DNA from: Candidatus Micrarchaeota archaeon
GTDB taxonomy: Archaea > Micrarchaeota > Micrarchaeia > Anstonellales > Bilamarchaeaceae
Direction: 5' to 3'
Length of the DNA stretch: 61,134 bases
Assembly (NCBI GenBank): GCA_040754495.1
Contig: JBFMCO010000046.1
Span: 1-61,134 of the forward strand
Positions 1-1,854 of this stretch are shown in pieces. The notes beneath the pieces are model-generated. The model worked only from the letters and a program-made list of their open reading frames with translations. It was not told the origin of the DNA and did not search any database. The position numbers and the translations under genes were made by a program. Each line of letters begins with the position of its first letter. The stretch's first letter is position 1.

Positions 1-119
1 TCAAGAAGCCACTGTGGAATAGGTATTATCGGAACATACATGCGGTCCAGCAGTCTATCCGCAACTTTGTCAAGAAGGGTTTCGTGATGCCCAAAATGTT
101 CGCCTATTTATGTCCCTGA
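1..119 (+). mobile_element. 3' tail of putative IS630-family transposase and element right end (partial, runs off window)
   Basis: Frame +3 is open from the window edge to TGA 117-119 and reads KKPLWNRYYRNIHAVQQSIRNFVKKGFVMPKMFAYLCP. This resembles the C-terminal helix that follows the DDE Glu in IS630 transposases. It is immediately followed by TA (121-122), the IS630 target dinucleotide. Confidence 0.5.
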
Positions 120-120
120 C

Positions 121-810
121 TATGAGAAATGTCTTCAGGACTTTTATGAACGTCGTTTAAAGACAATCGATGGCCTCCAGCTTAAGCGAGTCCTCGCCAG
201 AAAAAACCCCTACCTCTACAAGGCACTCGCAACTGAAAAAGCGTCCGATATCGTCGAAAAAATATTGGCGGATTATGTAAGTTCTTCAGATGAAACAATC
301 TTCGGCGATGCGTTCTTCGAACCAATCGCCCTGGCTGTTTCTGGGGGTAAAGTGTCCGAAGCACCGGGAGTTGATTTCAGCATAGAATCAAAAAAGAAAT
401 TCGTCGCCGTAGCCCTTAAATCAGGCCCGAACATCTACAATTCAAGCCAGAAGAAGCGGCAGTCCGACGAGTTCAACAGTTTACGTAGTCGCCTCCTAAA
501 ACTGCACAAGCAGTTTGATCCCATCCTTGGTCATGCCTATGGCAAGCTAAATAAAAAACCCCAAAAAGACCTCTCGTACCGTGATTTATCTGGGCAGGCT
601 TTTTGGGAAGAGGTTACCGGCGATTCCGATTTCTATCTCAAGCTTATTCGCTTGATGAAAGAGAAACCGACAGAATACAAGAAGCAGTACCAAGTTGCAT
701 GGGACGCAGCCGTAAATCGATTTACTCTCGAGTTCGCGAAGGACTTTTGTTTCAAGGACGGGCGGATTGATTGGGAAAGGTTTACCAAATACGTTAGTAG
801 CACAAGATAA
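121..810 (+). pseudogene. Type II restriction endonuclease, EcoO109I/PmeII-like, 5'-truncated
   Basis: Frame +1 from 121 reads YEKCLQDFYERRLKTIDGLQLKRVLARKNPYLYKA...SSDETIFG...GVD...LKSGPN...GQAFWE..TGD...FTLEF...DGRIDWE, which matches the family pattern. Conserved sequence begins well upstream of the track start (TTG 265), yet there is no in-frame start codon between the stop at 85-87 and 265. Confidence 0.7.
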
Positions 811-825
811 CCTCTCATCTCCAAT

Positions 826-1617
826 CTATTCAAAATACTCCTTCAGCTTCCTGACGTCGGTCTTCGCGCTGAAAATCTTATCCAGCGTCGTCGCCAGCTC
901 CTCTTTCGTGGCATGATGGACGTAACGCTGCAAGCTGTCGAGGCGGGTATGCCCCGAGAACGTCTGCAGCTTGAAGATGTCCCCTCCGACGGCCCGCGCG
1001 ACCTCCGTTATACCGTTGTGCCTCAGCGAATGGCTCGAAAGTCGGTACAGCGGCCGGCCGTCCCGCGAAACCGCGTACGCTGTCGCTAGGCCGCACTTCA
1101 CGACGCTCTCCCTGAACAGCTTCCGTGCATAGTTCTCATTCAGGTGCGGCATCGCCTGCTTCTTGTTCGTCGGAGGCTTATCCGAGAACCAGAGGCAGTT
1201 GTCGCACAGCCGTATCGCCTCGCGGTTCTTGTCCAGGTACACCGCGAGGCGGCTGAACATCTCAATCGGGATGGTCTTCTCCATGTTCCGCCCGGTCTTG
1301 GGCTCCCTGATGATGGCGGTCCTCCTGAAGAGGTCGAGGTCGGACACCCGCATCTTCACAACCTCGGAGATGCGCAGCGCGAGGCACATTTGCATCCCGA
1401 ACATGAGGCGATACTTCTCGTTCGGCAATCCCTCGAAGAACGCCTTCAGCTCCTCGGAGTTGAACGTCCTGTCCACGCCGGCGGAGAGGTTGGCGTCCTG
1501 ATTGTAAAGCTCCTTCCTGACGCGGTTCACGACCTTGGAAATCCTCTTCAGCTGGTTATCGCTGAGCGTCAGGCAGAACTCCTTCAAGCGAGCGAAAAAC
1601 GCAGAATCGAGGCGCAC
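826..1617 (-). CDS. Tyrosine recombinase/integrase (start uncertain: GTG 1617, or C-terminal part of a split integrase)
   Basis: All catalytic residues are visible: LALRISE (R), EPKTG (K), SHSLRH (HxxR), SGH and LQRYVH (Y). The gene lies directly downstream of the tRNA-Asp 3' end, and the frame stays open to 1800 through the tRNA. Confidence 0.88.
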   Translation of the reverse strand: MRLDSAFFARLKEFCLTLSDNQLKRISKVVNRVRKELYNQDANLSAGVDRTFNSEELKAFFEGLPNEKYRLMFGMQMCLALRISEVVKMRVSDLDLFRRTAIIREPKTGRNMEKTIPIEMFSRLAVYLDKNREAIRLCDNCLWFSDKPPTNKKQAMPHLNENYARKLFRESVVKCGLATAYAVSRDGRPLYRLSSHSLRHNGITEVARAVGGDIFKLQTFSGHTRLDSLQRYVHHATKEELATTLDKIFSAKTDVRKLKEYFE

Positions 1618-1649
1618 CCGTTTATGTGGTAATCGACGATAAAATAAGT

Positions 1650-1796
1650 CGCCTTGGCCGGGATTCGAACCCGGGTCGCGAGAGTTCCGTTCCGCCTTAC
1701 AGCCCGTTTTGGGCCGCCTTTTCCTAAAAGGCGGAATGACAGTCTCGTATGCTGGACCAGTACGCAAGAGCGTAGCTCTTTCTACACTACCAAGGC
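1650..1796 (-). tRNA. tRNA-Asp(GTC) with two introns (1761-1780, 20 nt, D-loop at about 16/17; 1685-1736, 52 nt, canonical 37/38)
   Basis: Removing both introns gives a 75-nt cloverleaf: GCCTTGG TA GTGT AGACTGGTCCA GCAT A CGAGA CTGTCAC TCTCG CGAC CCGGG TTCGAAT CCCGG CCAAGGC G. Both introns can be drawn with bulge-helix-bulge junctions. Confidence 0.93.
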
Positions 1797-1854
1797 ACAA
1801 TCAGCTTATCGTTACTACTGACTTAGTTTTAAAAAAGAATCGCTGGGGCCCATG

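Follow-up and report, generated by a model that had tools for sequence, protein, structure and literature searches.

Archaeal integrases of type I, the 'suicidal' integrases of SSV1/SSV2, pTN3 and pT26-2, carry attP inside the integrase ORF, use the 3' part of a tRNA gene as target and split their gene into an int(N) and an int(C) that come to lie at opposite ends of the element (She et al., 2001; She et al., 2002; Badel et al., 2020, PMC7253208; reviewed in PMC8371274). The 2021 review (PMC8371274) treats the suicidal integrases as one monophyletic group, with PF16795 as the mark of all known members, and describes them mainly from hyperthermophiles; outside hyperthermophiles, the published cases are five integrases from Methanosarcinales that belong to the pT26-2 family (PMC7253208). 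In pT26-2, the integrase gene and the tRNA gene are antiparallel (PMC7253208). Type II integrase genes, such as those of pNOB8, SNJ2 and PYG1, are intact after integration and have attP outside the ORF (PMC8371274). In the literature that we searched on Micrarchaeota or DPANN archaea we found no description of split or suicidal integrases, and the mobile elements of DPANN archaea are poorly known. Myxophage Mx8 has its attP within the coding sequence of intP, so that integration alters the integrase gene; there it is the 3' end of the gene that is exchanged, in a bacterial host, whereas in the Micrarchaeota family described here the 5' end, with the promoter and start codon, appears to be detached.

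The locus analysed here lies in a 61,134-nucleotide stretch (G000:C46:1-61134, hereafter the window) from a Micrarchaeota (DPANN) archaeon. We are confident in explaining positions 826–1800 as the attL junction of a mobile element in a tRNA-Asp gene, with an integrase gene that contained attP and was split by integration, and this integrase has very probably lost its promoter and start codon by its own insertion. Judged by its sequence and that of its relatives, the window integrase would be type I, self-splitting, by function; by sequence family it lies outside SSV/pTN3/pT26-2. Its family shares with type I the position of attP in the integrase ORF, the 3' part of a tRNA gene as target, the distribution of int(N) and int(C) at opposite element ends in two-ended relatives, the use of many tRNA targets within one family and the presence of hybrid or relic att sites (L061). 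The family differs in being Xer-like, with PF00589 and without PF16795, in having Micrarchaeota as hosts, and in a very small N part for which disorder is predicted, all folded domains being in int(C). Unlike in pT26-2, the integrase gene here is parallel to the tRNA gene and int(C) is fused in frame behind it. With type II integrases, the family has in common the tRNA-gene targets, the PF00589-type domain and islands with restriction-modification or defence cargo, but its start codon lies beyond the core.

The tRNA gene of the window is a tRNA-Asp(GTC) with two introns (positions 1650–1796, minus strand; Rfam RF00005, 39.5 bits against a gathering score of 29). Rfam alignment blocks place its exon pieces at 1796–1782, 1752–1738 and 1683–1650 and its anticodon GTC at 1740–1738, with inserts at 1781–1753 (29 nt, D-loop region) and 1737–1684 (54 nt, after the anticodon), all on the minus strand. 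These exons align to intron-poor tRNA-Asp genes located 5' of homologous integrases (L009, L010, L014). ARAGORN with default settings did not find the tRNA-Asp gene in the window and, with introns allowed, called it a tRNA-Ser, a miscall that was decided by Rfam in favour of tRNA-Asp(GTC). As noticed in the first-pass annotation, whose factual observations all proved correct, the integrase ORF stays free of stops through the whole tRNA: the stop-to-stop frame (826–1800, minus strand, 324 aa) crosses 1796–1650, the 3' exon (1683–1650) is read as ..SRDPGSNPGQG, its T arm and acceptor giving PGSNPGQG, and in-frame ATG codons begin at residue 133. We take the 3' exon (1650–1683, minus strand) as the att core at attL, the same part of the tRNA that is spanned by the attL and attR repeats of relatives; int(C), the coding sequence 3' of the core, occupies 826–1649 (minus strand, stop at 826–828). 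Two non-ATG starts lie further upstream on the same strand, a GTG at 1617–1615 (residue 62 of the ORF) and the TTG at 1585–1587 (residue 72) that was chosen by the gene caller for P0001 (253 aa). Owing to the high GC content of the region, a second frame (..TRVRIPAKA..) is likewise stop-free over the 3' exon and the spacer, so that for the window copy taken singly the absence of stops through the tRNA is not significant; its significance comes from comparison across the family. The spacer that separates the tRNA end from the folded domain (1601–1649, minus strand) contains a T-rich run (1647–1638) and two copies of TCGATT (1636–1631 and 1610–1605), degenerate counterparts of the GGTTCGR motifs of relatives; TCGATT as such is not enriched in the window (5 found, 2.6 expected). 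Just 5' of GTG 1617, the alignment shows a conserved P-x-K-R motif common to the window protein and P0130, which favours a spacer that is translated.

The window protein itself is recorded from a single contig. Relatives of the window integrase were found in metagenome-assembled genomes of Candidatus Micrarchaeota. When 401 genomes from the phylum of the window were sampled, 105 had homologues, a tally that counts the unpublished genome G199, which supports this number only. The IMG/VR viral contigs held no relative of the window integrase. A same-strand tRNA gene lies directly 5' of the integrase gene in 28 of 34 oriented loci, and at least 12 isoacceptors are used as targets, including Asp, Glu, Arg, Lys, Ser, Trp, Pro and Asn. 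Of the loci with such a tRNA, 27 were scored: in 26 of them no stop interrupts the integrase frame between the beginning of the T arm and the conserved domain, whereas the two other frames are stop-free over this stretch in 12 and 3. Exceptions in the family include L039, which has in-frame stops. Each of the three frames is used to read the tRNA end in one lineage or another (GSNP.., RVRIP.., GFES..), and P0007 differs from P0004 by a compensated frameshift that leaves the spacer open, so what is selected appears to be the open frame and not a particular peptide. Separately, in the tRNA-Glu(TTC) elements (L066, L067 and L068; proteins P0009–P0020), the 3' strand of the acceptor stem provides an in-frame ATG or GTG (..IPMGA..) that gene callers take as the integrase start, and an N-truncated integrase could begin inside the tRNA sequence in some hosts.

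Elements assembled at both ends indicate where the missing 5' end of the gene goes. On a 1.05-Mb contig of genome G001, the tRNA-Asp/integrase junction is followed, 13.2 kb further downstream, by a partial 3' half of tRNA-Asp, and an ATG-started ORF enters this attR in the same phase (..TRVRIPAKA) as int(C) leaves the tRNA at attL; a second element on the same contig, of 4.1 kb in tRNA-Arg(TCT), has the same in-phase int(N) arrangement. We then fetched 20 regions of up to 20 kb, and in 11 of them the 3' part of the tRNA is repeated in the same orientation on the downstream side of the integrase gene (L013 was re-found by the same script). These repeats are mostly 26–50 nt long, at least one reaching about 62 nt, and delimit elements of 2.2–11.7 kb. 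Counting the repeats of the fetched regions together with L009/L019 and L086, an ATG-started ORF in phase with int(C) is present at 12 of 16 attR copies and in only 5 of 32 control frames, the ATG standing 13–20 codons before the repeat in eleven of the 12 and 32 codons before it in L061. A stricter automatic count gave 10 of 15 versus 4 of 30 control frames (Fisher p=5e-4). The exceptions are L064, with an open frame that has no ATG, L086, with an ATG-started ORF that is one frame off, and L071, a tandem and decayed array. Conserved TATA-like boxes and GGTTC motifs lie 5' of these ATGs. In this family, the integrase promoter and start codon are therefore found at the opposite end of the inserted element.

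Some of these attR regions have further features. Several copies of a TTTACTCTACATGA-like motif, which may be iterons or regulator sites, occur a few hundred nt upstream of int(N) in L019 (1760–1900, minus strand) and L013 (13560–13760), and the promoter regions of both G001 elements are near-identical (CGCACCCGATG..TATATAAATT). In L061 (7640–7790), the int(N) of the tRNA-Arg(CCT) element still has the remains of a tRNA-Arg(TCG)-type core, read in frame as VAGSNPVMP and placed immediately before the present core; this looks like the trace of a change of target or of a hybrid reconstitution of the kind suggested for the integrases of pT26-2. Tandem attR/int(N) modules are seen in L065 (11320–11910), two of them 522 nt apart, and L071 (2268–5098, tRNA-Leu(TAG)) has several partial cores and a full tRNA duplicate with an integrase 5' end; the modules at both loci look like stacked or decayed elements.

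The window protein is only about 30–35% identical to the integrases of the two-ended loci, and nearer relatives were therefore searched for exhaustively. The nearest are P0130 (46%), P0129 (46%) and P0131 (41%), which are intact, ATG-started genes of 300–316 aa on contigs of 2.6–6.4 kb with small unannotated genes on both sides of the integrase gene. No tRNA gene was found on these contigs by ARAGORN or by Rfam at E<=1. Within each gene, a segment resembling a tRNA 3' end lies 17–33 codons after the ATG, and that of P0130 (L088:399–431) equals the window tRNA-Asp 3' exon (1682–1650) at 31 of 33 bases. The ATG codons of these genes are 50–60 codons upstream of the position aligned to GTG 1617 of the window. 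GGTTCGR motifs are concentrated at the same place: against an expectation of 0.77 sites per contig, L092 (6.4 kb) has 7, of which 6 fall within 170 nt at the integrase 5' end, and the 4 sites on L088 all cluster there as well. The synteny around P0129 is equal in three independent assemblies. The absence of tRNA genes and the gene content suggest that these virus- or plasmid-like contigs are free forms, and the intact genes appear to represent the attP state of the closest kin of the window integrase, with attP inside the integrase ORF. Contigs L088–L094 showed no terminal overlap pointing to circularity, and PHROGs and Pfam assigned no function to the genes of the free-form contigs. The P0129-carrying contigs encode a 920-aa protein (L093, 3233–5995, minus strand) with a weak DUF2341 match, next to other genes that have no family match.

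Four other loci were considered as candidate free forms on the basis of their N-termini. L084 is a decayed junction, and L086 and L087 are integrated behind intron-bearing tRNA-Ala genes, their TTG 'starts' being inside the tRNA. L085 (515–1465; DAHXBN010000042.1) encodes an intact 316-aa integrase with ATG, leader and tRNA-Leu-like core in one ORF, and neither a tRNA gene nor a second core was found within 11 kb; the context is ambiguous, as the contig breaks off 514 nt upstream and the downstream side has host-like genes (Rpb6, SMC).

The enzyme itself belongs to a different family from the known suicidal integrases. The window integrase matches PF00589 (Phage_integrase) with E 4e-17 and 63 bits against a cut-off of 27.1, whereas PF16795 (Phage_integr_3, the SSV-type family) gave no match at E<=10 for the integrases of the window, L013 or L009. 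The catalytic residues R143, K168, H257, R260, H284 and Y293 are all present, and their columns are invariant or nearly so in a 46-sequence alignment (A2). In the AF2 model of the window ORF (mean pLDDT 75.6), residues 1–59 have a pLDDT below 50 and order begins at about residue 61, the folded enzyme extending from about residue 62 to the end of the 324-aa ORF. Foldseek matched this model, with its helical N-domain and catalytic domain, at probability 1.0 to IntI4, XerA, XerH, Cre and lambda Int, and also returned Tn1549 Int. Among proteins of known structure, those closest in sequence are XerA, IntI4 and XerD (E ~1e-4), and SSV1 integrase is absent from the PDB matches by both sequence and fold. 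The int(C) of the window thus looks like an intact, ordinary Xer-like PF00589 tyrosine recombinase. The label 'SSV1/pTN3-type' in the first-pass annotation does not hold as a family name: only PF00589 is matched, PF16795 is not, and the nearest structures are those of IntI4, XerA, XerH and Cre. Its proposal of an int(C) from a virus or plasmid integrated in a DPANN host otherwise agrees with our data as to its logic, attP in the integrase gene and int(C) fused to the tRNA at attL, for which the two-ended elements and the tRNA-free intact genes of relatives provide the evidence.

The likeness to XerA and XerC/D (4a8e, 5hxy, 1a0p) extends to the R-K-H-R-H-Y catalytic set and to a place among the closest solved sequences and folds, but the similarity is just E ~1e-4. 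XerA dimer resolvases are characterized by a single chromosomal copy at dif and no mobile element; the window integrase is not one of these, because its family is multicopy (three paralogues in its own genome, up to six in others), tRNA-adjacent, located at element ends with direct repeats and found on extrachromosomal, virus- or plasmid-like contigs. Two further paralogues in the same genome, at G000:C13:353-1024(-) (L083) and G000:C14:48555-49220(-) (L082), with 31–32% identity, were of no help for the window junction, as they belong to another subfamily and have no adjacent tRNA gene by Rfam or ARAGORN. This subfamily has long upstream open frames, and two of its relations, L073 and L075, have an upstream tRNA 3'-end-like sequence on the opposite strand.

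A unifying model based on these observations is the following. In the free circular element, the 5' end of the integrase gene would hold a copy of the tRNA-Asp 3' exon as its attachment site, in the order promoter, ATG, leader of about 15–35 codons, tRNA-like core, spacer with T-loop-like GGTTCG motifs (putative integrase-binding sites) and folded enzyme, and the integrase would be expressed from the promoter that precedes the core. By recombining this core with the 3' exon of the tRNA-Asp gene in the chromosome, the integrase would insert the element and restore a complete tRNA, leaving int(C), the whole enzyme-coding part, in frame behind the tRNA with neither promoter nor start codon. The int(N), consisting of promoter, ATG and leader, would move to the far end beside the duplicated tRNA 3' segment (attR). 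Insertion would in this way disconnect the integrase from its expression signals and presumably stop its expression, and excision would need integrase in trans, for instance from a related or tandem element, or else weak translation of int(C) from an internal start such as GTG 1617. The window copy presumably had an int(N) of this kind. Its own split rests on homology, because the contig ends 825 bp beyond the integrase gene and its attR is unassembled: BLAST of positions 1600–1800 against its own genome, an 80%-complete assembly, returned only an intron repeat and no second core, and a search of the same assembly with a 25-nt core pattern (up to 3 mismatches) matched the window alone, with no attR/int(N) copy.

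The models also indicate how little of the protein this split would remove. In AlphaFold predictions, the leader, the core-coded peptide and the spacer all lie outside the fold, in the window ORF as in the intact P0130 (pLDDT 83.7), which is disordered to about residue 50 and folded from a helix at 55. The part detached would therefore be only the promoter, the ATG and a leader that is predicted to be disordered. The statement that neither fragment is active after integration, a feature of type I, may not hold here because all predicted folded domains are in int(C), and 'suicidal' may overstate the fate of the window integrase. With these domains in int(C) and the fold beginning at GTG 1617, a working enzyme in the integrated state is conceivable. 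Taken further, this leads to the possibility, which we consider real even if we lean against it, that only a dispensable, disordered leader is lost, that the integrated int(C) yields an active enzyme from an internal start (GTG 1617, or the acceptor-stem ATG/GTG of tRNA-Glu) on read-through transcripts from the tRNA promoter, and that the element excises itself. The disorder predicted for leader, core peptide and spacer in both proteins fits this possibility, as do the reading of the core in all three frames across lineages, which suggests an unconstrained peptide, and the in-frame acceptor-stem ATG of the tRNA-Glu elements that gene callers use. However, the upstream ATG and open leader are kept in many lineages, which suggests that the long form is the functional product, and the integrated copies L084 and L086 have decayed.

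We think it unlikely that the window junction is merely the attL left by an old insertion, the body of the element having since disappeared or been rearranged so that attR is gone. The failure to find attR in the assembly, the endonuclease ORF that has no canonical start after an in-frame TGA (see below), the degenerate spacer motifs and an integrase GC content equal to that of the host would all suit a dead remnant. Yet int(C) retains a clean 324-codon frame with every catalytic residue, and the contig simply ends 825 bp away, as do the contigs of many relatives at their integrase loci, which is expected of strain-variable islands.

Still less probable, in our judgement, is a classical type II (pNOB8- or lambda-like) integrase that is complete from GTG 1617 or TTG 1587 and has its own promoter after the tRNA, the open frame being a by-product of GC-rich tRNA sequence: a self-sufficient gene is physically possible, with a T-rich, TATA-like run about 25 nt upstream of GTG 1617, a predicted fold that starts there (residues 62–66), a second frame equally open through the 3' exon, TTG 1587 as the choice of the gene caller and no attR in the assembly, but the nearest relatives start with an ATG 50–60 codons further upstream and include the tRNA-like core in their reading frame, stops in the tRNA end are much rarer across the family in the integrase frame than in control frames, an ATG sits in phase at attR, and the T-rich run also fits an ordinary archaeal tRNA terminator. 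The first-pass annotation had kept an intact gene from GTG 1617 as its alternative. Relatives start upstream of the core, but the GTG coincides with the predicted start of the fold and may therefore be a secondary start once the element is integrated.

We find it likely, with somewhat less confidence than for the junction itself, that these enzymes are a second, independent origin of self-splitting integrases, in a Xer-like PF00589 family with attP in a disordered N-terminal leader and present in about a quarter of the sampled Micrarchaeota genomes and on small virus- or plasmid-like contigs. Gene splitting by integration would then be a recurrent design for shutting off integrase expression, not a quirk of one lineage found chiefly in hyperthermophiles, and could be tested in a further group of archaea. 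On the sequence comparisons, the same gene-splitting logic seems to operate in an unrelated integrase family that is common in DPANN archaea. The family may also serve as a contrast case for the question of why attP sits inside an integrase gene: because only expression signals and a disordered leader would be lost, the arrangement may serve to regulate expression and not to destroy the enzyme. Since gene callers systematically mis-start these integrase genes and tRNA finders miss intron-rich tRNAs, such elements are invisible to standard annotation.

All of the assembled element interior of the window is contained in positions 1–825, position 1 being the end of contig C46. Its cargo is an EcoO109I-like type II restriction endonuclease gene (88–810, plus strand; PF14511, E 2e-54), convergent with the integrase gene, whose frame matches profile positions 8–195 of 198 and whose GC content is 0.44–0.48 compared with about 0.6 in the integrase gene and the host flank. 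No ATG, GTG or TTG occurs near the start of this frame after the in-frame TGA at 85–87; an ATG is present in the frame at position 40, but the TGA then interrupts it, and the gene may be a nonsense pseudogene or have an unusual start. No methyltransferase gene is seen in the assembled stretch, which is cut off by the contig end.

The tRNA-Asp gene of the window has one further peculiarity. Its anticodon-loop intron (the introns lie within 1684–1781) carries a hairpin-plus-tail motif, TCCGCCTTTTRGGAAAAGGCGG CCCAAAAC, which BLAST finds about 20 times in genome G000 (on contigs C22, C24, C58, C59, C14 and others). In at least five cases it falls within an intron that ARAGORN called in another tRNA gene (Leu, Arg, Lys, Gln, Pro), while some copies are outside any called tRNA, and the motif may mark a family of related or mobile tRNA introns.
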